In this document: positions 3,251-63,878 of the stretch, in pieces | Layout of the letters: every line of letters starts with the position of its first letter | How positions within the stretch are numbered: the first letter of the stretch is position 1 | IMG/VR virus record: IMGVR_UViG_3300049988_000124 | Coordinates: 243,822-307,821 of that record | Length of the DNA: 64,000 bases | From: a virus | Taxonomy: Duplodnaviria; Caudoviricetes | Reading direction: 5' to 3' (one strand) | The notes under the pieces: generated by a model | Seen by the model: only the letters and a program-made list of their open reading frames with translations | Database searches by the model: none | What the model was told of the DNA's origin: nothing | Program-made: the position numbers and the translations under genes

Positions 3251-6200
3251 TCACAATCCTATTCTCTCATCTTCTAGTTCGAGGTTAGCGCTTTCCTTTG
3301 ATGCGTCGATAACTTGCTTATACTCACGCTCGTCAGGATCAGGGCCTGCGAAGTCTGCACCAACGATGCTGTTGATGAGTTCGCGCACCTCTGCTAGGAT
3401 CTCGTCGGTACGAGATGACACGTTGGGAACACCGCCAGTATCAAGGGTTACCTCGATAATCGTGACCGGGTGAATCTGTCCCAATCGGTCCGCACGAGCA
3501 ATCACCTGATCATAGGTAGCCTGCCGGTAGGGACGATTGAGTAGCACCACCGTCGAGGCGGCAATCACCGGAACGGCCTCTGAGAGCGACTGCATAGTCG
3601 CACAGATCGGATTTACATTCGGGTCATCAGTGAAGCGGTTGATGTTCTTGGTTAGGTCTGCGTTGGTATCAGCGTAGACCATGAGGGGCTCAAAGCCCTG
3701 ATCGGTCAGATGCTTACTCAAGACCTTAACCGGTAGCACTGAGGAGGCAAAGAAGAGTGTCTTGGAGAGCGACTCTTTCATGATCACGTCGGGCTTACAG
3801 AACACACCCAAGGCTGCTGCACATTCTGATCGACGCTTAGCGAGGATCGTGCCCAATGCCTCGCCTCGCACCTTCAGCTTCAAGTTCTTCACAGCGGACA
3901 GAGCATTTCTGAACTCACTGCGATTGATCGGTGGAATTGACGGATAGAGTTTGGTCCGCTCGTAGGTACGACACGCAGCCATCTGGTCCGTCATCATGAG
4001 GTCAGGTGCTCTCATGATCATCTTGAGATTCTTCTGATAGGTGTAGAAAGCTTGACGGTCTTGACGAGATTCTAACTTATTCTCGTGGTAGTTCATGTAA
4101 AAATCAACGAGCTTACGATAATGCTTGATGTTGTCTTTATACATGGTCAACTGCTTCTGGATGAACTCTTTCATCTCCTCCCTGACTGTTGACATCAGGA
4201 ATTTATGAGCAAGGGCTGGAGGCAATCTGACGGGAAGTTCTTTTACCACAGGCTTGGTGGCAGAGAAAGCAGACTTACCGACCATGAAGGCCATCTGCTG
4301 ACCCAAACGATGTTGGAAGATTTCGCCTGCCTTACCAGGAGACATCGTGAAGATCTGCTTGAAGCGTCGCTCTGCATCAGCATCGAACCGGTGGTCCGAG
4401 CATTTGAGAAACGAGACCATCTCAGCGGCACTCTTCAGGATCGGTGAGCCTGATGTCCACAAGAATAGAACATCGTCTCTTAGAGTCTGGAGCTTTACGA
4501 GCTGCTGAGTACGGTTGGAGCGCCAGTCCGCAAAGTTGTGGGACTCATCGACGATCACGAAATATTTGCGACCTTGAGCGTGGATCTTCTTGCCGAGTTC
4601 GATCGCTTTGTTGATCTGCTCGAAGTTGAAGATGTAATATTCGGTCTTCTTCTCTGGCATCGGTAAACCAGAGTCACAGCACCAGTAAGTCGGAGTCTTC
4701 TTAAAGACGCTGTTGATCGTCTTTTCCCAAACGAGGTGGAGTGCCTTCTTGGGAGAGATGATGATCTTGACATCAGCGACACTGGGAGGAACCACGCATT
4801 CAGCGACGCAGAGATCAAGGAAGGTGTTGTGCGTCACGATGTAATCGTTCGTAATGTACAAACGATCAGGGTGATCAACAGAGATACACTGGGCCTGCTT
4901 CTTACCGACGTAACGAATCTTTTCAATACGCAGGCGCAAGCTGTCCTTGTACTGGTAGTTCTCAGGAGTCAGCTCCTTCTTGCGAGGAAGACGGAAGAGG
5001 TCGGTAGGCTCGCGGTAGCGAATGTTAACCTGATAAGCAGGCTTACCTTCCTTGCGCTCACCCTTGTAGGTGTAGTGCGTCTGTTTAGTCTTGATGCGAG
5101 CAAGACCACCAATGCTGCGAATCAACTCCTGTATGTGCTTAGCGAGCTGTTCGCTAGTTGTGCAGAATGACGTACTTCCATTCTCACTGACGGTTCCGTC
5201 CGAATCCATCAGACCTTGAATAAGCGCAAGCTTCTGAGAGAAGGAGGCATTCAGGTAGACATCCGGAACAAACTTGGTATGACTACGAGTACTGTTGAGT
5301 TTGAGAGCATGAAGCTGATCAACCAACATCGATCTCGACCAACGCTTCTCCCGTGTCTTCTTCACGACTTGATAGTCGTACGAAGACCTGGACTTATCGG
5401 GCCGGTACACCAACTCAGAATCGTCGGGAAGCAGATGTGAGACCTGGTCTACAATGAAGCCATCTGCCGAGGAAATCGACACCGTTCCTTCACGGATGTG
5501 TCCATCACCAAGGATGATGCCGAGAAGGTAGGGATCAATGGATAGCTGAACGTCTTCCTTGATCTCTGGCTCGGGAAGAGGAACGTAGAGACGACTGGGT
5601 TCGAGTTGGTGATTGTCCATATGTAGACGAATGTCAATGAAGGGAACGACCTTCCAACCATCCACACGACCGTCCTTGTTGGAGCGTGCCCAATCCTTGT
5701 GTCGAACTTTCCAGAGGTGGTCATCACAGCATTCCACTGAACGACCGTCCTCAAAGGTTACTTCGTACATGTCGAGCTCACCTTGCGGATAAACTCCAGT
5801 AACGAACGAGGTTCCACCATCGGGTGTAACAATGGGCTGACCAACGGTCATGTCACCATTGCGCATCCATCCTGACGGAGTACGAATGAGATCTTCTAGG
5901 CCTAGCGCTTTACCACCACCAGGGGCAAAGCCGATGATGTAACCACGCAAGTCATAGCGCGGCATCCGGTCACCGAAGAGATGAAGGAACTCAATCTGCT
6001 TGGGCATGGCCTGCCACTTCATCTGATTGAGACGCTTCATGTCGATGATTGACTTAACCTCGCCGGTACTAACCTTGAACCACGTGTCCTCGAGGAGTCC
6101 TTTGACGATCTTGTCGATGGTGCGCTTACCCGACCACGTCGTGCGCTCATCGTGACGCAATTTGGCAAGCATGAAGATTAGGTCGGGGACGAAGAAGCGA

Positions 6201-27301: not shown

Positions 27302-27718
27302 CTAAGCAGTAGCGAACTGCTCTGTGGTCTGTTCTTGAATACCGTGAAGATTGAACGAGTAGCTCAGCTTGCCCGAGTGCGACCCGTACATTCCAACAAC
27401 AACAGTGCTCAGTCGGTCACGTTCTGCTTGCGTGAGCTCTCGAACCTGGGGAACGGTGGTCATCACGTGCATGAGACCAAGACCCTCTACGAACTGTCCC
27501 CATACCAGATCACCTTTGCGCAACTGAGCGATGAAGAGTTCCCATGACTGATCATCGACACGCTCGAGGTGAGTGGTGTGGATTGCCGTACCATCCTTGA
27601 TCGTCTTGTGCGTCCAGTCTCCCCTGATCGCGACATAGTGTCCGCCCTTGGGAATCTTCTCGACTCCTTCGACCAAAGTGGGGTCGGGGTACCCCAGTGT
27701 TGGATCAACCCATTCCAT
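27302..27718 (-). CDS. hypothetical protein
   Basis: AAGGA RBS; packed in the operon. Confidence 0.6.
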   Translation of the reverse strand: MEWVDPTLGYPDPTLVEGVEKIPKGGHYVAIRGDWTHKTIKDGTAIHTTHLERVDDQSWELFIAQLRKGDLVWGQFVEGLGLMHVMTTVPQVRELTQAERDRLSTVVVGMYGSHSGKLSYSFNLHGIQEQTTEQFATA

Positions 27719-48862: not shown

Positions 48863-50305
48863 TCAGCTCGGGAAGAACCGGCGAGTGCCGGGTTCACCGA
48901 AGTTCGACGGGGCACTCATGTTAAAGCCCATCGAGGGTGAACCGAACATGTTCTGCTGTGCCTGCACAGGAGCACCGAAGGCAGCACCTGCGGGGGACGC
49001 AGGATTACCCATCATCGGCGACATCATTCCCATGCCTCCACCCATACCACCGCCCATGCCTGGTCCCATCATGGGAGCCATCATCGTCGGCGCTACACCG
49101 AACGCATTACCCGACATGGACGGCGCACTATTGTGACCAATCCCAGGGGTACCCGACGGCGAGAACGGATCGGCCGGAGTGTTGTCCACGATGTGTGGAC
49201 GGAAGCGACCGTTCTGCTGAGGCTGGGGTTGACCCATCATGAAGCCTGGCTGCGGTTGAACACCAAAGCCACCAACAACTGGCGGACCCTTGAAGCGGCT
49301 GGGTTTGCCATCGGGAGTCATGGTACCAGTACCATGGGGCTGGAACCGCATACCACGCGTATCGCTCGAGGCAGTATCTGCAGCCTTTACCGATGGGGCG
49401 GTATTGGTCTGCATCATGTGCTTGGCGATGTTGTAGGCAGCGGGGAACCGCTCAATGACATCGTTGAGCGCACCCAGGTCCACCACGAACGTATCGGGCG
49501 GAGTGCCATCAGTCGTATAGGCATCCACGGCGACTTCGTTGAAGACTTCGTAGAGCTTCAGGTAGACCGACATGGTGGTGTGGAAACGAGGAGCACTTCT
49601 GACGTTCAGCTCGGAATATTTCACCGAGAACTTGGACAGCTGATCGGGAGCTGTGATCCCGAAGACGCCCATGATGAGTGCCTTGAATGCGGCCACGGAA
49701 CGCTTGCGCACATCCTTGCCTGCATACTTGGCATCCCACTCAGCATCGGTCAGGACCGAGCAGGTAACGCGTGCCGTCATGTCCCTGGTGTCGTAAGGGA
49801 CGAAGAAGAACGTATCATCGATACGGTCACACAGCGTCTTGAACTCCTTGATCATTTCATCATCGATGACGTCGTAGAGCGTCTGACGCTTGGCCATCTG
49901 CACCCCTGCCATCTTGACAACAGCCGGAGAGATCGTGAACTCTTCACCGGCTGCTGCTGCTTTCTTGGCCGTCAAGATAGTGCGAGCGACGTGGAAGAAG
50001 ATCACCATCATGGTCGCGTTGGTCGCGACACGGATAGCCTGGTAGTAATAGTTGTTGGCGGGATTGCCGACCCTGCCCAATCCTTCGGAGAAGGGATTGA
50101 ACGTCAGATACTCGCCCTTGGGCATGGTGCCCTGAACCAGCACGATCTCGCTACCGCTGTCAGCCCCGTCGAGCTTGGGCTTGGCCCGCTCACTGGTATT
50201 GGCGACGGTGAGATATCCCTCATTGTCGACTTCGAAGACGTTGGTCAGAGAGACCAGATACTTCAGGTCCTCTGTTACGTCCTTAATGGTGTACCCATCC
50301 GTCAT
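48863..50305 (-). CDS. putative phage-nucleus protein-import factor (PicA/Imp1, phiKZ gp69 position) with low-complexity tail
   Basis: Immediately follows the gp68-like gene; FNPFSE motif; ~180-aa G/M/P/Q/F-rich C-terminus. Identity rests mainly on synteny. Confidence 0.55.
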   Translation of the reverse strand: MTDGYTIKDVTEDLKYLVSLTNVFEVDNEGYLTVANTSERAKPKLDGADSGSEIVLVQGTMPKGEYLTFNPFSEGLGRVGNPANNYYYQAIRVATNATMMVIFFHVARTILTAKKAAAAGEEFTISPAVVKMAGVQMAKRQTLYDVIDDEMIKEFKTLCDRIDDTFFFVPYDTRDMTARVTCSVLTDAEWDAKYAGKDVRKRSVAAFKALIMGVFGITAPDQLSKFSVKYSELNVRSAPRFHTTMSVYLKLYEVFNEVAVDAYTTDGTPPDTFVVDLGALNDVIERFPAAYNIAKHMMQTNTAPSVKAADTASSDTRGMRFQPHGTGTMTPDGKPSRFKGPPVVGGFGVQPQPGFMMGQPQPQQNGRFRPHIVDNTPADPFSPSGTPGIGHNSAPSMSGNAFGVAPTMMAPMMGPGMGGGMGGGMGMMSPMMGNPASPAGAAFGAPVQAQQNMFGSPSMGFNMSAPSNFGEPGTRRFFPS

Positions 50306-56651: not shown

Positions 56652-56726
56652 TGGTGCCCCTTGTACGATTTGAACGCACGACCTTCGCTTTACAAAAGCG
56701 CTGCTCTACCGCTGAGCTAAAAGGGC
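56652..56726 (-). tRNA. tRNA-Thr(TGT)
   Basis: Cloverleaf, loop TT-TGT-AA, encoded CCA. Confidence 0.9.
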
Positions 56727-56739
56727 TAACCATTTTTGA

Positions 56740-56964
56740 CTACACACCGTTCTTGGGGTCTTGGGGTAGTGTGTCTAAACCATTGTAGAAAGGGACGGGT
56801 TCATGCTCATCGCCAACAGCAAAGATGGCGATGTCACCATCGACGATTTCGATCTGTGCCCGTCTATCCCACTTCATATGAATAAAGTCAGGCTTACCCC
56901 AGATACGAACAGCGGAGTGATATTCGTCTCCTCGAAAGCCGATAAAATGAACGATGGCTTTCAT
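56740..56964 (-). CDS. small hypothetical protein
   Basis: HFIGFRGDEY..A.RIWG.PDFIH..WD.RA pattern typical of small phage proteins. Confidence 0.6.
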   Translation of the reverse strand: MKAIVHFIGFRGDEYHSAVRIWGKPDFIHMKWDRRAQIEIVDGDIAIFAVGDEHEPVPFYNGLDTLPQDPKNGV

Positions 56965-58069: not shown

Positions 58070-58088
58070 TCAAGTATAATGAAGCAAG

Positions 58089-58160
58089 CTCGAGTGACAG
58101 GATTCGAACCTGTGACCAAGGCATTAACAGTGCCCTACTCTACCGCTGAGCTACACTCGA
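58089..58160 (-). tRNA. tRNA-Asn(GTT), CCA not encoded
   Basis: Loop CT-GTT-AA, G73, canonical D and T arms. Confidence 0.85.
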
Positions 58161-58170
58161 GCTTGCTCCA

Positions 58171-58365
58171 CTACGGATTGATCCACTGGTTCAACGAATC
58201 AGCTGACCACAGAGGACGACGTCCCATCCAAATAGTCGGCTTTGGAAAAGGAGATAGCTCCCCGTTGATGTAAGCGAGAAGTGTTCCCATTCTCAGGCGT
58301 TCAAAAGAACTACGAGAAATAAGTAGCTTCTCACAAATGGCTTTGATTCCAAGGAGAGTAATCAT
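58171..58365 (-). CDS. AlpA/excisionase-like HTH protein
   Basis: LLGIKAICEKLLISRSSFERL...FPKP...GRRPLW....L.QWI. Confidence 0.7.
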   Translation of the reverse strand: MITLLGIKAICEKLLISRSSFERLRMGTLLAYINGELSPFPKPTIWMGRRPLWSADSLNQWINP

Positions 58366-58559
58366 GATGAATTCCTCACAATACGGAGTTCATCGATCTC
58401 TTGGAATTCATCGTCGTAGAAACGTTCATCGGTACTTGTTAGCATCCATCTCGATAGGCACGGAATACTATCACCGTGCCACTCAGCGATGACCCATTCG
58501 ACGGTATCCCTTACCCAGTAGAACCCGTTTTCTCTAACTGGCTTATCTGCTTGTTCCAT
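58362..58559 (-). CDS. small hypothetical protein (GFYWVR family, paralog 2)
   Basis: TAATG coupling with the upstream gene; GFYWVRD..W..A.W...EIDE.RIVRN shared with paralog 1. Confidence 0.6.
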   Translation of the reverse strand: MEQADKPVRENGFYWVRDTVEWVIAEWHGDSIPCLSRWMLTSTDERFYDDEFQEIDELRIVRNSS

Positions 58560-58849
58560 TATAGAACCTGCCAATCTTCAGCGAGAATATCAGATGTGCT
58601 AGGCACCCAAACAGCAACATCTTCATCCACAGTCTTTAGTGCAAAGTAAGCACGGTAAGGAATCATCTCACCCTCACCGAAATACTCTTTGGCTGCACCG
58701 GTCTGCACTGGGTAGGATGCTGCGGGAACCATGTAGGCGAACATGCCCTTACCGTTCCAGCCAGCACGTGTGATACGCTTGCCTTCTTTCAAAGCTCTAA
58801 GCGCTATTCCGAAGTCGAGCTGACTACTTAAAGAGATTTGCCTCCCCAT
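58559..58849 (-). CDS. DUF2829 / Tad2-family anti-defence nucleotide sponge
   Basis: FG.AL..LKEGKRITRAGWNGKGMF...W.PS.SDILAEDW. Confidence 0.85.
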   Translation of the reverse strand: MGRQISLSSQLDFGIALRALKEGKRITRAGWNGKGMFAYMVPAASYPVQTGAAKEYFGEGEMIPYRAYFALKTVDEDVAVWVPSTSDILAEDWQVL

Positions 58850-58878
58850 TACGACTCAACTCCTTTCATGAAAGAGAT

Positions 58879-58966
58879 TGGTGGGAAGAGCTGGATTCGA
58901 ACCAACGTTCACCATTACGTGAGCAGATTTACAGTCTGCCGCCTTCAGCCACTCGGCCACCTTCCC
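58879..58966 (-). tRNA. tRNA-Tyr(GTA)
   Basis: Loop CT-GTA-AA, long variable arm, A73, encoded CCA. Confidence 0.93.
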
Positions 58967-59039
58967 ACAATAAGGACCCCGTTTCTGTTGCTACGTACGG
59001 GCCTTTATTGCCCACGCCACCATAGGGAGTCGAACGCCC

Positions 59040-59450
59040 TAGGAATTTACTACGCCGTCATTGAGGTGAGTCGCTGACTAAGCGTAGCTGCCGTTAGGCA
59101 ACGAGACGGATGTCCATCTCATTGTCGTTGGCTGCGACTGCGGGGTTATTCGCATTCACTGTGGATGGCTTTTTGTCGACTAGGTTCCCCTGGTCCGTGG
59201 GCAGCCATGCCCGGTCGCGTATTCTCGCCACAACACACGTCGATCCTGGTTCAGACCCATCATAGCCACTGACTAGGGAAGATTAGATGTAAAGGCGATA
59301 ACCCTTCATCCTCTTATCGAGCCCAGGTGCTCTATCCTTTGCAAGAGCCAGTGACTATGGTGGATCTGGCCGGTACTGCCCCGGCGTCCGCTGCGCGCTT
59401 TGATATCCCGATTAATTTACGACCATTACCCTCTTGCGAGGATCTGTTTG
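59040..59450 (-). ncRNA. ssrA: circularly permuted two-piece tmRNA (alphaproteobacterial type); outer ends approximate
   Basis: Acceptor piece ends CCGGGGCAGTACCGG-CCAGATCC-A-CCA at 59358; coding piece starts GGGTCTGAACCAGGATCGAC at 59258; acceptor stem has the G3.U70 pair. Confidence 0.9.
59094..59132 (-). other. tmRNA tag reading frame (A)ANDNEMDIRLVA*
   Basis: GCC AAC GAC AAT resume context matches the ANDN start of alphaproteobacterial tags; TAA sits in a hairpin. Confidence 0.88.
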
Positions 59451-59459
59451 CCATCACTG

Positions 59460-59610
59460 GCGAGATGGATGCTGCACTCGCGGTATGGAGAAATTATCTC
59501 CTACTCTACCTTGAACGGTTCAACCGGGAAGGGTCGCTCAACGTCTAGGCGTGATCTATTAGTCATAAGCGTAATGCCTAATAAACCGACGATTACAGCA
59601 TCCATCTCGC
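59460..59610 (-). ncRNA. rod-closed structured ncRNA, module B (candidate)
   Basis: 15-bp perfect inverted repeat gcgagatggatgctg/cagcatccatctcgc, extended by further helices. Confidence 0.6.
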
Positions 59611-59636
59611 GATTGACGGATACGTCTTAATAGATA

Positions 59637-59806
59637 CTCACTGGCGATGAGGATGCTGTACTCAGCATGAGGCCGGAATCTCATTAACCTGCGCGGAGGG
59701 CGGCGGTCTCGACGCTAACAGGCTACTAACTCAAATGAACGGTTTTGGGTAACAGGGAGACCATCATTTAAGCTAAACTGAATACAACACCCACAACGCC
59801 AGTGAG
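59637..59806 (-). ncRNA. rod-closed structured ncRNA, module A (candidate)
   Basis: About 35-bp closing helix with G.U pairs only on the minus strand; internal GGTCTC/GAGACC stem; ORF-free. Confidence 0.6.
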
Positions 59807-59886
59807 CGAGGAACTAGCACAAGTGAGAGGTAACACACCGGTTGTGCTATAACACATTGGGATCAGGGGTTATTTTTTCTGTTTAT

Positions 59887-60114
59887 TCACCAAGGCCGAC
59901 CCAGGATCATACCACCAGGATTAAAGGCAATGATCATTGGTTGTCCTTGTCCCTCGATGAATTGACGCTGTGCTTCATGTCGTTCGTTTAACAGCTGAAC
60001 GGTGAGCGTAGCAGCACTGTCGTCGTTTGCGGTGAGGATCGGAGAACTCTGGGTCTTACCGTAGATCCGGTTCCCCAAAGAGGTCAAGGGAAAGTCTTGA
60101 GATGTCAGTGCCAT
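59887..60114 (-). CDS. small hypothetical protein
   Basis: AAGGA RBS. Confidence 0.55.
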   Translation of the reverse strand: MALTSQDFPLTSLGNRIYGKTQSSPILTANDDSAATLTVQLLNERHEAQRQFIEGQGQPMIIAFNPGGMILGRPW

Positions 60115-60646
60115 GGGAATGATCCTTGCTTTCTGACTGTAACCAGCCGCTTACGGTGAAGAGCTGGAGAAGGTAGATCACGTTGTTGACGACGTTACAG
60201 AGACTGACCTGTTCGCCATAAACGGTAACCACACCCAGATATCCGTACCAGGTGGAGACTGTTGTGAAAAAAGCAGCGGCGTAGAGGATGGTTAACTTAC
60301 CCATCCACCGGTAGTGGTGGGTTCCCCACATGATCCCACTCAAGGCAAAGAAGAACAGGTCAGAGAGATAGAGCCACTTCATTGCTCCTACCACAATACC
60401 CATAGATCCCATCACCCAAGTGGTGGCATTAATGCACCAGAAGACAATCATGACTCCGGCTGCAATCATGCGCCACCAATTACTATCTTCCGCGTCCTCG
60501 TCGCTGTTTAGACATCGAATAAGTGTATAGAGGAAAACCAACGAGGTCAAGACACCCCAGAACAACAGCTGACCCATTGGTGAGATGATGAACTCGCCAA
60601 GGTAGGTGAGAATGCCTACCCACAGATTGAATGTGGGACTAGACAT
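60056..60646 (-). CDS. multi-pass membrane protein
   Basis: About five hydrophobic segments. Confidence 0.6.
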   Translation of the reverse strand: MSSPTFNLWVGILTYLGEFIISPMGQLLFWGVLTSLVFLYTLIRCLNSDEDAEDSNWWRMIAAGVMIVFWCINATTWVMGSMGIVVGAMKWLYLSDLFFFALSGIMWGTHHYRWMGKLTILYAAAFFTTVSTWYGYLGVVTVYGEQVSLCNVVNNVIYLLQLFTVSGWLQSESKDHSHGTDISRLSLDLFGEPDLR

Positions 60647-61250: not shown

Positions 61251-62759
61251 TTATGCTGTTGCTGTGTACTTGTTGTGTCCACGCCAATAGTGAGCGTTTT
61301 GACGAACTTCCTCGAAGACCGGAGGGTTAACCAACACCCCGTGCTCGAAGATAACCTGGAGGTAGTCCTGCTCACCTTCCAGTAGCTCGTGCTCTTGGAT
61401 GGTAACGAAGTCGACGTACGGATCGGGGAAGTGGTTAATCTCACGACGCACAACGGCGAAGCGACCACCCTTTGATGCCTTAGTCGGATCGGTCTTGACT
61501 TCCTTCCTGATCGACCTTGCACTACCGTTGATGACGACCTCAGATGCCTTCATGGCAAAGCGGTGAGTGTCCCGCTCCACATCGTGTTGCATGAGGCCCC
61601 CACCTGAGCCAAAGGCGATGTTGTCGACCGACCACTTGTGGTAGACAACACGCTGAAGGATACGACGGAGACTCTCCTCGTTGATCCCATCGCCTTGAAT
61701 AAGACCCACGAACTCGGGGAGCACTCGGAAACCCTTCTCATTCACCGTACTACCGACCAGACTCTCGATGAGGTCAAGAAGGTGGACGACGTTGATAACC
61801 GGGTCACCAGAGTCCGGACGCAGGATGATCTTGATGTTGGAGGCAATGAGCTTTTCCAACAGACCACAACCACCCTTATCCGCCGGTGTCATCCACATGT
61901 GAACAGCTTCATCCTGATCGTAAGTGTCGATCACGACCGAGACAGGGTAGCGACCCCCCAGAGGATTGATCTCGTCCTTGAACTGCTCAATCACATGCTC
62001 GTAGAACGCTTGTTCATTCTCACGGCCCCAGGATGTGGTGACCGAATGCTCAGACGCTGGAATCGAGAAGCCGAGCATGGCTTCGGTTCGGTAGGTGTGC
62101 TGACCAAAGGTAATGCCAAGGAGATTGTCGGTCACCTGGAAGTTCACCAAGTGCGCCATACCGGACACTCCTGCATCCTCGGTGACCCGGCAACCACGTG
62201 CGGAGAAGTCAACGACCTTGAACTCAGCAGTGCCCTCAGTCCCGGAGATCTGAAGATACTCCTCAAGCAGCGACCACCAGCGCATCCCACGGGTTGCAAT
62301 CGTAGTCGGCATCCAGACGCGCATGAGCATGGTCTCGATCGTGATGCACAGACCTGCCACATCCTCGTCGAGTGACTCGATGACACAGGCAACACAACCC
62401 TGTGGGATTACTGTTCCCTCAGCAATCTGCTTGATGCGAATCGGTAGCCTTCCGTCGTAACGATCGCGCACGATCTCAGCACCCACTCGGTCGAAGGGAA
62501 TACCGTGTAGCGGAAAGAACTTGGCAGCATGCTCAATGAACGCCGTCGTCCAGCGCTGGGTCAGGAAGTAACGCAGCGTGTAGACGTTACCGAACCACAT
62601 GATCTCACTAAAGCCGCCGCCCTTGCGAGCCTCGATATACCCGTACTCGGAGGTGAGCATGGGGTGTTCGAATTTCCAATGTGATCCCTTGTAGGTGTCC
62701 TTGTTCAAGATAGGCTGGGTGAGGAGCTCACCGATGGTATCAAAGAATTCCATGGTCAT
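61251..62759 (-). CDS. nadV: nicotinamide phosphoribosyltransferase (NAMPT/NadV)
   Basis: DTYKGSH, DFSARG, IPASEHS..TSWG, SVVIDTYD, RPDSGDP, IQGDGIN, FGSGGGL, K..KTDP.K.SK.GR. Confidence 0.93.
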   Translation of the reverse strand: MTMEFFDTIGELLTQPILNKDTYKGSHWKFEHPMLTSEYGYIEARKGGGFSEIMWFGNVYTLRYFLTQRWTTAFIEHAAKFFPLHGIPFDRVGAEIVRDRYDGRLPIRIKQIAEGTVIPQGCVACVIESLDEDVAGLCITIETMLMRVWMPTTIATRGMRWWSLLEEYLQISGTEGTAEFKVVDFSARGCRVTEDAGVSGMAHLVNFQVTDNLLGITFGQHTYRTEAMLGFSIPASEHSVTTSWGRENEQAFYEHVIEQFKDEINPLGGRYPVSVVIDTYDQDEAVHMWMTPADKGGCGLLEKLIASNIKIILRPDSGDPVINVVHLLDLIESLVGSTVNEKGFRVLPEFVGLIQGDGINEESLRRILQRVVYHKWSVDNIAFGSGGGLMQHDVERDTHRFAMKASEVVINGSARSIRKEVKTDPTKASKGGRFAVVRREINHFPDPYVDFVTIQEHELLEGEQDYLQVIFEHGVLVNPPVFEEVRQNAHYWRGHNKYTATA

Positions 62760-62768
62760 GTCTCCCCC

Positions 62769-63878
62769 TTAAATCGACAAGTCGTCGAACTGGTGTAGGA
62801 AATACTCAAAGGGATTGTAGAGATCCTCGAACATCATGGACCTCACGACCTCGTCGGTATTCCACCAGCGAGCCTGCCTGGCATCATCAGCACCCTTGAT
62901 AGCGGGACGTGGATAGTGAGCTGGGATCACCAGACCATAAGCCATCGAGAAAGTAACTTCCCGATTTGACCGCCAGGGATTGTCGAGCATCTTCTCGCCG
63001 CGAATGAATGAGGCTAACATGTCACGGGTCAGCCAATCGTTGAGATCAAGAATCTGTGTTTCTTGATTGACCTCATCGAGCATTGCTTCTTCGAAGGTCT
63101 GATAAGCCCTCTTGTGACCACCCGGAGAAGCCCACAGTCCAAGACCTGGCATCTGTCCACGCTGAACCAGACAGACCGAACCGGCATGGTACATGAAACC
63201 ATCAGCACACGGGAATTGCTGCGGATCATCAGTAAACGGATTCTTCGGGAACAGGGGCAAGTATTCCTTGACCATGAACTTATACTCAGCGCGCATCAAC
63301 TCGAACTGCGCGGTGTGTACCCACTGACGAAGGAACACGTATGTCCCTTGGGGGATTACCTGAGGCTCCGAGCGATATAGAAGCTCGACCTGCGCTGCTG
63401 GATCTTCAGCGTCGTAGATTGAGTGTCTGATGTCCGTTGCCGAGACCGGTAGTTCCTGCTCGCCGAGCACGGCCTGTGTGGCAACCGCTCCCCATTCAGG
63501 AAACATCTTCAGATAGTACGATGTACCATCTTTGGCGTAACCGACGAGTGCAATACGGGGCTCATGACCAAGCTTCAGGTTAGCTGCTTCTCGTGTCGTG
63601 ATGCGCTGAACATCGCGCACCCACTGGAGATTACTCTCGCGGTCTTCCACTGGGAAGATGTAGACCCGGTCATTCTCAGCTGGCGTCAGTGAGCCACGAA
63701 TCATTCCCACTACCTCATCAAAGGTGTGAGGGTTCTTGAAGTGAGGCGCTTCAAAGGCAGAGCCAACGAAGATAAACGCGTACTGACCTGAGAGCAAGCA
63801 GGCTCGGATGTTCTTTAGATGAGGTTCCGTCGGCGGACGCATCCGGCCAGCGAACGCACAAATGTCATACATACCCAT
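62769..63878 (-). CDS. NMN adenylyltransferase-Nudix fusion (NadM-Nudix type)
   Basis: GR..P.T..H, VGSA, NP..F.E, SATDIR; GLWA.PGG, GADDA..A.W. Confidence 0.88.
   Translation of the reverse strand: MGMYDICAFAGRMRPPTEPHLKNIRACLLSGQYAFIFVGSAFEAPHFKNPHTFDEVVGMIRGSLTPAENDRVYIFPVEDRESNLQWVRDVQRITTREAANLKLGHEPRIALVGYAKDGTSYYLKMFPEWGAVATQAVLGEQELPVSATDIRHSIYDAEDPAAQVELLYRSEPQVIPQGTYVFLRQWVHTAQFELMRAEYKFMVKEYLPLFPKNPFTDDPQQFPCADGFMYHAGSVCLVQRGQMPGLGLWASPGGHKRAYQTFEEAMLDEVNQETQILDLNDWLTRDMLASFIRGEKMLDNPWRSNREVTFSMAYGLVIPAHYPRPAIKGADDARQARWWNTDEVVRSMMFEDLYNPFEYFLHQFDDLSI

Follow-up and report, generated by a model that had tools for sequence, protein, structure and literature searches.

In alphaproteobacteria, ribosomal RNAs (rRNAs) carry intervening sequences that are excised by RNase III and in which a long stem closes a variable interior. 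The tRNA cluster of phage T4 includes structured stable RNAs of about 100–150 nucleotides (nt) that lie beside tRNA-type genes (species 1 and 2; rnaC and rnaD), and some RNAs that are not tRNAs, including the 4.5S RNA precursor and the phage φ80 M3 RNA, are substrates of RNase P whose ends are made by tRNA-processing enzymes. Here we describe two RNA modules, A and B, in the window, which forms the final 64 kb of an IMG/VR phage genome (307.8 kb) that comes from leaf metagenomes. The modules lie side by side on the minus strand, directly before a gene for transfer-messenger RNA (tmRNA), and are members of a small RNA family that occurs in tmRNA leaders of sphingomonad phages and is absent from Rfam. 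On balance, we lean towards reading A and B as leader cassettes that are co-transcribed with the tmRNA and processed at a conserved helix that defines their ends.

Two stem-closed modules abut a permuted tmRNA gene

The locus contains the following features, in 5′ to 3′ order on the minus strand.

59638–59805, minus strand: module A, a stem-closed cassette of 168 nt running from 5′ UCAC to 3′ GUGA
59777–59805, minus strand: 5′ strand of the module A closing helix (UCACUGGCGUUGUGG...), pairing with 59638–59666
59667–59776, minus strand: module A interior ('cargo'), with three hairpins; a 16-nt C/U-rich loop (CUCCCUGUUACCCAAA) caps the first
59638–59666, minus strand: 3′ strand of the module A closing helix, ending ...CAUCGCCA-GUGA
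59617–59637, minus strand: spacer between the modules, 21 nt, with one small hairpin
59454–59616, minus strand: module B, a stem-closed cassette of 163 nt; 5′ box decayed to UCAAUCGCG, 3′ box ...CAUCUCGCCA-GUGA
59451–59457, minus strand: GUGAUGG junction, whose GUGA (59454–59457) forms the final four bases of module B
59003–59453, minus strand: permuted (two-piece) alpha-type tmRNA gene, tag ...ANDNEMDIRLVA (ARAGORN)
59094–59424, minus strand: match to tmRNA_permuted, RF04321 (Rfam, 73.5 bits)
59266–59354, minus strand: tmRNA intervening segment; its closing helix, UCACUGGC/GUCAGUGG, has the base seen in modules A and B

The end of module B coincides exactly with the start of the permuted tmRNA. 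A first-pass annotation of the window had described two modules poor in open reading frames (ORFs), each closed by a long helix, directly upstream of the tmRNA. This arrangement holds, with only short ORFs (at most 76 amino acids) overlapping the modules and the tmRNA called by both ARAGORN and Rfam. The closing helix of module A spans 29 positions, comprising 27 pairs, four of them G·U, and two U·U mismatches; the annotation had given it about 35 base pairs (bp) and a G·U-rich character, and the long helix and its G·U pairs stand, but after 29 positions the 5′ strand enters an internal hairpin. Module B contains, as had been noted for one of the modules, a perfect 15-bp helix (GCGAGAUGGAUGCUG and its complement), here found within 17 contiguous pairs, beyond which come a 3 × 3 internal loop and three further basal pairs; 19 of the 21 basal positions are paired.

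The two helices are related on both strands. Their 3′ strands are homologous, with 22 of 26 positions identical between 59454–59479 and 59638–59663, as first reported. The 5′ strands, which had been thought to differ and yet pair, do pair with compensatory changes, but they too are homologous, with about 14 of 20 positions identical. Between A and B, two pairs are altered on both sides (U-A to G-C and G-C to A-U) and two more change to or from G·U. In natural variants from two leaf metagenomes, the only stem changes are from G·U to A-U or from A-U to G·U: in a related strain, 59661 C>T converts a G·U pair of module A to A-U, and 59601 T>C converts an A-U pair of module B to G·U.

Folding of the region 59454–59830 gives −156.3 kcal/mol on the minus strand (z score −9.6 against shuffles) compared with −130.6 kcal/mol on the plus strand (z score −4.8). 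The minimum free energy (MFE) of module A is −76.2 kcal/mol in the sense and −55.3 kcal/mol in the antisense direction, and that of module B is −69.0 kcal/mol. The interior of module A is significantly structured in the sense direction only, with z scores of −3.0 on the minus and −0.1 on the plus strand.

On a contig from a related strain, about 50 extra letters separate the tmRNA start from module B, exactly at the GUGAUGG junction (window position 59450).

A covarying closing helix is shared by eight cassettes in four phages

By collecting phage loci with alpha-type permuted tmRNAs and then reading their upstream regions, we found six further cassettes in three other phages, bringing the family to eight known cassettes in four phages.

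L089, IMGVR_UViG_3300045450_000055 (163 kb): three cassettes, M1 at 1366–1487, M2 at 1246–1362 and M3 at 1138–1255
L237, IMGVR_UViG_3300048904_000202 (164 kb): two cassettes, N2 at 1635–1737 and N3 at 1741–1855
L235, Sphingobium phage Lacusarx (NC_041927): one cassette, 1696–1832

All six are found in tmRNA sense within the 5′ leader of a permuted tmRNA of alpha type and share the covarying closing helix, which bears out the proposal of a duplicated, structurally conserved phage RNA family. In each of these three phages a sigma70-like promoter precedes the array, and the cassettes would therefore be leader RNA of the tmRNA transcript.

We aligned the eight cassettes from both ends in a single register, giving 192 cells over 24 positions. 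A 21-bp closing helix is common to all of them and carries many compensatory changes: 170 of the 192 cells pair, whereas exchanging 3′ strands between cassettes leaves 132.8 ± 6.6 paired, and in the distal part (positions 14–24) 81 of 88 cells pair, against 54.4 after such exchange. Each of positions 16–21 is occupied by three to five pair types. RNAalifold, applied to an independent MAFFT alignment, recovered the 14 basal pairs, of which 7 show compensatory changes. The first-pass annotation had also assigned the RNA to the minus strand from its G·U pattern. Across the helices, G·U pairs outnumber A·C mismatches by 15 to 3 (P = 0.004), and the sense MFE lies below the antisense MFE in nine of nine elements; the structure is therefore selected on the tmRNA-sense strand.

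The helix follows the consensus 5′ UCAC-N5-(A)UG-N-GG... / ...CC-N-CA(U)-N-R-CCA-GUGA-UG 3′. Its UCAC/GUGA base is invariant across cassettes, barring one decayed base in module B. On the 3′ side, seven of eight cassettes have R-CCA-GUGA-U(G), even though C6′, the central C of CCA, is mismatched in five of the eight. Position 8, where a discriminator base would be, covaries with its partner (C-G, U-A); position 9 is G-C in six cassettes; position 13 is mismatched in six, mostly as U·U; and positions 14–15 are GG/CC. L089 M1 has lost the CCA altogether, with compensating changes on the 5′ side, and L089 M2 and M3 overlap by a shared 10-nt palindrome, UCACCAGUGA.

The position in a tmRNA leader is exclusive. 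A scanner for UCAC...GUGA helices, run over four complete phage genomes, found cassettes only in tmRNA leaders, with 0.2 chance hits expected; one match, at genome position 27408–27604, lies inside an open reading frame and was taken as chance. A covariance model could be built from the eight cassettes, as the annotation had envisaged, and scores 70–88 bits in sense against 16–35 bits in antisense, the sense scores (74 bits for module A and 84 bits for module B) being those of the model's own training sequences. It brought no new members from five phage genomes or from 156 Sphingomonadales genomes (five plus 151 sampled from the order), in which its lone match, at 23.9 bits, was coding sequence. 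In a set of 119 viral loci that have the T-arm of an alpha-type tmRNA, cassettes occurred only in L089, and the other large phage contigs had a promoter directly before the tmRNA. The same holds for Erythrobacter phage L02 and several IMG/VR contigs, in which the promoter adjoins the tmRNA and there is no cassette; the tmRNA-bearing relatives without cassettes are L02, L240–L244, L142 and L238.

Searches with the A/B sequence itself were fruitless. The A/B region, compared by blastn with GenBank phages, matched only at tRNA-Tyr, and within its own genome it occurs at a single place. A scan of bacterial genomes for GTGATG with a T-arm retrieved host ssrA genes, none with a cassette. Scanning IMG/VR for the exact motif of the shared 3′ strand returned eight matches, all by chance and with no likeness past the motif, and a two-box pattern scan of the same database returned L089 and five chance matches only. 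The two-box scan of bacterial-genome and metagenome contigs gave 35 matches, none with the helix except L277 (Ga0105252_10000201, about 5740–5890, minus strand). There, nested TCACCGGTGATGAGGGGG-like palindromes occupy an intergenic place on a GC-rich contig with no tmRNA nearby; they are probably DNA-level repeats unrelated to the cassettes.

Interiors are structured but mostly unrelated

The interiors of A and B are each predicted, by both MFE and centroid structures, to present three hairpins on the closing stem, and no similarity is detectable between the two. Across the family, interiors are likewise unrelated in sequence and shape, except for one shared type (..CAACACUAGGCCGGCGAGGCAGGGAGUAGUG..CGAGCUU), which occurs in L089 M1, L237 N3 and the Lacusarx cassette with about 80% identity over 50 nt (z 13–16) and has no Rfam match. 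The loop of its hairpin, AGUAGUG, is able to pair with an upstream CACUA, and hairpin and loop pairing together probably form a pseudoknot. This type stands first in the L089 array and last in that of L237, which indicates shuffling.

Unpaired C/U-rich loops are predicted in A (CUCCCU...), B (CUUCCC) and L237 N2. C/U runs with CCC number 3 against 0.74 expected from shuffles of the interiors (P about 0.01, on MFE structures), a weak hint that such loops might pair with Shine–Dalgarno sequences. L089 M2 is the sole cassette with a T-arm-like hairpin. Because the interiors are structured, mutually different and exchangeable, each cargo probably has a job of its own.

The closing helix as a putative processing signal

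In the processing model towards which we lean, the cassettes would be transcribed from the minus strand together with the tmRNA, and host nucleases would cut at or near the boundary between CCA and GUGAUG. Such a cut would free a tmRNA with a GUGAUG... 5′ end, which host ssrA transcripts appear to obtain by initiation, and would also free each cassette as a stem-closed RNA of roughly 90–155 nt, mostly CCA-ended; it is because one cut yields both that we read the helix as an end-defining signal. Two routes can be envisaged: a staggered RNase III cut within the long helix, or an RNase P cut 5′ of the G that opens the G-C pair beside R-CCA, followed by 3′ trimming, as with tRNA and tmRNA precursors. 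We infer transcription, the cuts, the enzymes and the stability of the products from the features that follow.

The junction itself is host-like. In each array the final cassette ends ...CCA-GUGAUGG and is followed by the tmRNA body; the heptamer GUGAUGG at 59451–59457 matches the 5′ start of alphaproteobacterial ssrA transcripts, and the same type of junction is present in L089, L237 and Lacusarx. The alphaproteobacterial ssrA genes that we retrieved have GTGATG directly after a −10-like box, and the Rfam alpha_tmRNA consensus reads aGUaGUG at the corresponding 5′ place. A cut between CCA and GUGAUG would thus give the phage tmRNA a host-like 5′ end, to the extent that junction sequences can tell; the phage tmRNAs that lack cassettes also lack GUGAUG, which limits this argument. 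In L089, where M2 and M3 share their palindrome, a cut between CCA and GUGA would be the only self-consistent one, serving both cassettes with a 2-nt 3′ overhang.

In many host ssrA genes (L175–L234), the 5′ aGUGAUG is complementary to the 3′ end, ...CUCACU(U), which suggests a terminal helix holding the two tmRNA pieces together.

The helix base is reused elsewhere in the same tmRNA and at tRNA genes. The UCACUGGC/GUCAGUGG base of the intervening segment extends the acceptor stem, through the CCA. Excision of this segment is required to make a two-piece tmRNA, and its use of the same UCAC/GUGA base supports the processing reading; past the 8-nt base, modules A and B have no likeness to the tmRNA or to its intervening segment (z about 0). 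The tRNA-Pro(cgg) genes of L089 and L237 (G001 56682–56778 and G002 48980–49076) are flanked by a leader–trailer helix with UCAC/GUGA ends whose middle covaries between the two phages (UGCUU/AAGCA versus GGUUU/AAACC). The leader U-N-G-Y of the cassettes faces R-CCA just as the leader does in the tRNA-Pro of L089 and in the tRNA-Tyr of the window, the gene next to the tmRNA.

58879–58966, minus strand: tRNA-Tyr, directly downstream of the tmRNA; its leader UUGU pairs with ACCA

Leader–trailer pairing also encloses the window's tRNA-Asn (58088–58160, minus strand), which has no encoded CCA: about 14 bp of it lengthen the acceptor stem, within a 21-bp helix (58070–58185). The tRNA-His genes of Lacusarx-like phages (L089 2589–2664, L239 1536–1611 and L244 1510–1585) have no encoded CCA and are bracketed by leader–trailer helices of 10–13 bp.

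What the helix is selected for can be read in two ways. Covariation at the discriminator pair and the loss of CCA in L089 M1 with 5′ compensation favour selection on the duplex, and an acceptor-like end is favoured by the conserved, though often unpaired, C of CCA.

Several points weigh against processing at an end-defining helix. The stretch 59806–59886, upstream of module A, contains no sigma70-like site and no recognizable promoter for the A/B array, nor is there a copy of the early-promoter motif of this phage, TATATTAC, upstream of module A. In two phyllosphere metatranscriptomes, RNA contigs cover only the tmRNA part, at 90–95% identity and thus from a relative, and are uninformative on the cassettes. 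The covariation at position 8 and the loss of CCA in M1 point to the helix, and not a free R-CCA, as what is selected. The eight cassettes are related by descent and duplication within four phages, and the shuffle statistics overstate their independence. The five phages have no genes for RNase III or CCA-adding enzyme, and host enzymes must be assumed. Finally, a simple processing signal needs neither a structured interior of 100 nt nor two or three copies.

We also considered a link with RtcB and set it aside: its gene is present in four Lacusarx-like genomes, one of them without cassettes, and absent from the window's phage, and does not track with the cassettes.

The Lacusarx leader contains further elements. 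An HNH endonuclease gene (L235 1989–2534) lies between the cassette and the tmRNA (2484–2877), overlapping the annotated 5′ end of the latter, and GUGAUG occurs both at the cassette end (1829) and at the tmRNA start (2506), as though insertion of the HNH gene had split a once contiguous leader–tmRNA junction. Directly after the cassette comes an unannotated tRNA-like RNA (L235 1838–1965; NC_041927 about 74173–74300) whose acceptor-type stem has 12 bp. It has both a D-arm (GCCCGAGUGGUUUAAGGG) and a T-arm (GAGGGUUCGACUCCCUC), with a long insert in the place of the anticodon arm, and neither ARAGORN nor Rfam calls it. Lacusarx has neither tRNA-Tyr nor tRNA-Met, according to its genome paper (PMC5648845).

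Genomic neighbourhood

On the minus strand the gene order is a nicotinamide adenine dinucleotide (NAD)-salvage pair, small ORFs, modules A and B, the permuted tmRNA, tRNA-Tyr, a Tad2-like gene and further tRNAs.

62769–63878, minus strand: NadM-type cytidyltransferase/Nudix gene, member of the NAD-salvage pair
61251–62759, minus strand: NAMPT gene, member of the NAD-salvage pair
59806–59886, minus strand: intergenic stretch from a 75-amino-acid ORF (59887–60114) to module A, with a weak fold (z −1.2)
58559–58849, minus strand: Tad2-like gene (Pfam PF11195, 86 bits)

The RNA island is thus flanked by genes of anti-defence type, Tad2-like on one side and NAMPT with NadM/Nudix on the other. Searches with the neighbouring proteins found no relatives of a 196-amino-acid protein, and the loci reached through relatives of the Tad2-like protein were neither syntenic nor tmRNA-bearing.

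Alternative explanations

The cassettes could be selfish or neutral inserts, that is, palindromic elements that spread by recombination at their end boxes and are harmlessly removed from the tmRNA leader as functionless cargo. Copy number and order do vary among the phages (two, three, two and one), the shared interior is first in L089 and last in L237 while other interiors are unrelated, related tmRNA-bearing phages (L02, L240–L244, L142 and L238) do without cassettes, and the rRNA intervening sequences of alphaproteobacteria offer a parallel for a long closing stem around a variable interior. Miniature inverted-repeat elements of the REP, ERIC and Correia types are similar in their terminal inverted repeats, variable core and variable copy number, and some of them are cut by RNase III when transcribed. 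We nevertheless judge this origin unlikely, given that four complete phage genomes and 156 sampled Sphingomonadales genomes hold no other copies, that the module A interior is significantly structured on the sense strand only, that one interior is about 80% conserved in three phages despite diverged stems, and that the helix base is invariant beyond what mere complementarity would need; the cassettes also differ from REP, ERIC and Correia-type elements in lacking dispersed copies, in their strand-specific G·U pairing and in their fixed location and orientation. A functional alternative, compatible with the processing reading, is that the excised cargos act in trans as small RNAs (sRNAs) whose C/U-rich loops pair with the Shine–Dalgarno regions of host or phage mRNAs, by a mechanism that would resemble that of the tandem AbcR1/2 sRNAs of alphaproteobacteria. 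The excess of CCC-containing runs, the sense-strand structure of the interiors and their tandem arrangement would suit such a role. Such loops are found in only three of eight cassettes, however, Rfam offers no matching sRNA family, the abundance of GGAG-like targets defeats a test of complementarity, and the loop statistic depends on MFE predictions; the idea is distinctly unlikely as the main explanation.

Resemblance to tRNA ends raises another possibility, namely that the released helices, with a G-C first pair and a 3′ R-CCA, serve as decoys or sponges for host factors that recognize tRNA 3′ ends. Defence nucleases, nucleotidyltransferase toxins and RNase P would be candidate targets, and the role would complement an island of tRNA, tmRNA and anti-defence genes. 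R-CCA is kept in seven of eight cassettes despite the C6′ mismatch, with G-C before it in six of eight, the leader U-N-G-Y pairs with R-CCA as in the window's tRNA-Tyr and the tRNA-Pro of L089, and the Tad2-like protein and the NAMPT and NadM/Nudix pair are neighbours. Against this, ARAGORN and Rfam find neither T-arm nor cloverleaf, there is no G3·U70 pair, the would-be discriminator is base-paired and covarying, L089 M1 has no CCA, and the argument is one of sequence resemblance throughout; we regard acceptor-end mimicry as quite improbable. The first-pass annotation had itself suggested a decoy of another kind, a 6S-like RNA that would bind the host sigma70 RNA polymerase, and had put a sponge or scaffold role on an equal footing; such a role may still apply to the cargo. 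The cassettes do resemble 6S RNA (RF00013) in length, at about 165 nt, and in their long terminal stem. The 6S suggestion found no support on comparison: cmscan against Rfam, 6S included, gave no family match for the modules (window at gathering score; 58700–60200 at E ≤ 10), and Rfam searches of the window, L089 and Lacusarx at both thresholds returned only tmRNA and tRNA. The interiors are predicted to be multi-branched, with four-way junctions in place of a central bubble, and are conserved neither between A and B nor across phages, the conserved part being the helix base and the tmRNA junction; moreover, the members in Lacusarx-like phages stand behind sigma70-like promoters and so seem to depend on the host polymerase. 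A 6S-like function is therefore very improbable, and the leader position and precursor-like ends speak for processed leader cassettes. We think it just as improbable that the inverted repeats act as DNA, as sites of protein binding, replication or recombination. The TCACCAGTGA-type junctions are local palindromes in L089, and L277 has its nested palindromes away from any tmRNA, but the ratio of G·U to A·C (15 to 3), the better sense fold in all nine elements, the separation of the arms by 60–140 nt and the constancy of tmRNA orientation and leader location speak for RNA.

Implications

Processing at an end-defining helix could also be part of something larger. We put forward, tentatively and as a rather doubtful extension, that the tmRNA leader is a platform for the expression and processing of exchangeable RNA cargos, which the host tRNA/tmRNA maturation machinery excises and which recombination at the boxes transfers between unrelated phages. 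If so, a structured RNA of any kind would, once flanked by UCAC... and ...R-CCA-GUGA boxes, emerge as a stable, CCA-ended, stem-closed molecule. The cargos, among them those of A and B and the pseudoknotted type of L089, L237 and Lacusarx, would then serve the phages as a set of effector RNAs, for example anti-Shine–Dalgarno regulators or acceptor-end decoys against defences that target tRNA.

Phage tmRNAs are routinely annotated, and the sequence preceding them seems to have been overlooked. A literature search found no description of tmRNA-leader cassettes, which appear to be undescribed; the Lacusarx paper mentions the tmRNA only (PMC5648845). One closing helix is common to two very different phage types, a 308-kb jumbo phage and Lacusarx-like phages of 130–165 kb. 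Such a shared helix, with an invariant base beside the tmRNA 5′ end, implies that sphingomonads or their phages have a sequence-specific step of RNA maturation, that an RNA cassette has moved horizontally along with the tmRNA, and that phages possess a set of structured RNAs. Cultures of Lacusarx and of its host, Sphingobium sp. IP1, exist, so direct testing is feasible.

Comparison with known systems

Of the described RNAs, some can be set apart readily. For Y RNA and YrlA, the phage genome has no Ro (TROVE) domain and Rfam gives no match. From 6S RNA the cassettes differ in giving no model match and in having neither a predicted central bubble nor a conserved interior. A tRNA-like identity finds no cloverleaf or T-arm in 59454–59806, by ARAGORN or by the Rfam tRNA and tmRNA models; the cassettes do have the trait of a tRNA-like RNase P substrate, a helix opened by G-C and followed by 3′ R-CCA (R-CCA in 7/8, G-C in 6/8).

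With T4 species 1 and 2, the 4.5S precursor and M3 RNA, the cassettes have in common a size of about 100–150 nt, a place beside tRNA-type genes with presumed co-transcription, ends that tRNA-processing enzymes would make and a helix with a CCA-like 3′ end; for the T4 RNAs the likeness is drawn from context only. Unlike the RNAs of the T4 tRNA cluster, they are tied to a tmRNA leader, and their closing helix is common to phages of a different host group.

Another parallel is with the intervening sequences and processing stems that RNase III excises, as in alphaproteobacterial 23S rRNA, the stems of rRNA operons and the segment of permuted tmRNAs, where a closing helix of at least 20 bp surrounds a variable, structured interior. 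The cassettes have this architecture, with a closing helix of 21–29 bp kept by covariation. RNase III processing stems are embedded in the precursor of a stable RNA, and by analogy the leader position of the cassettes may be equivalent. They differ from the intervening sequences in lying in a leader rather than in the mature RNA, in forming tandem arrays of one to three, in their invariant base and R-CCA-GUGA 3′ side, in the conservation of one interior type and in that their cleavage is putative. Within the window, the comparison can be made inside a single locus: the intervening segment of the tmRNA stands on the same UCACUGGC helix base as the cassettes that precede it.

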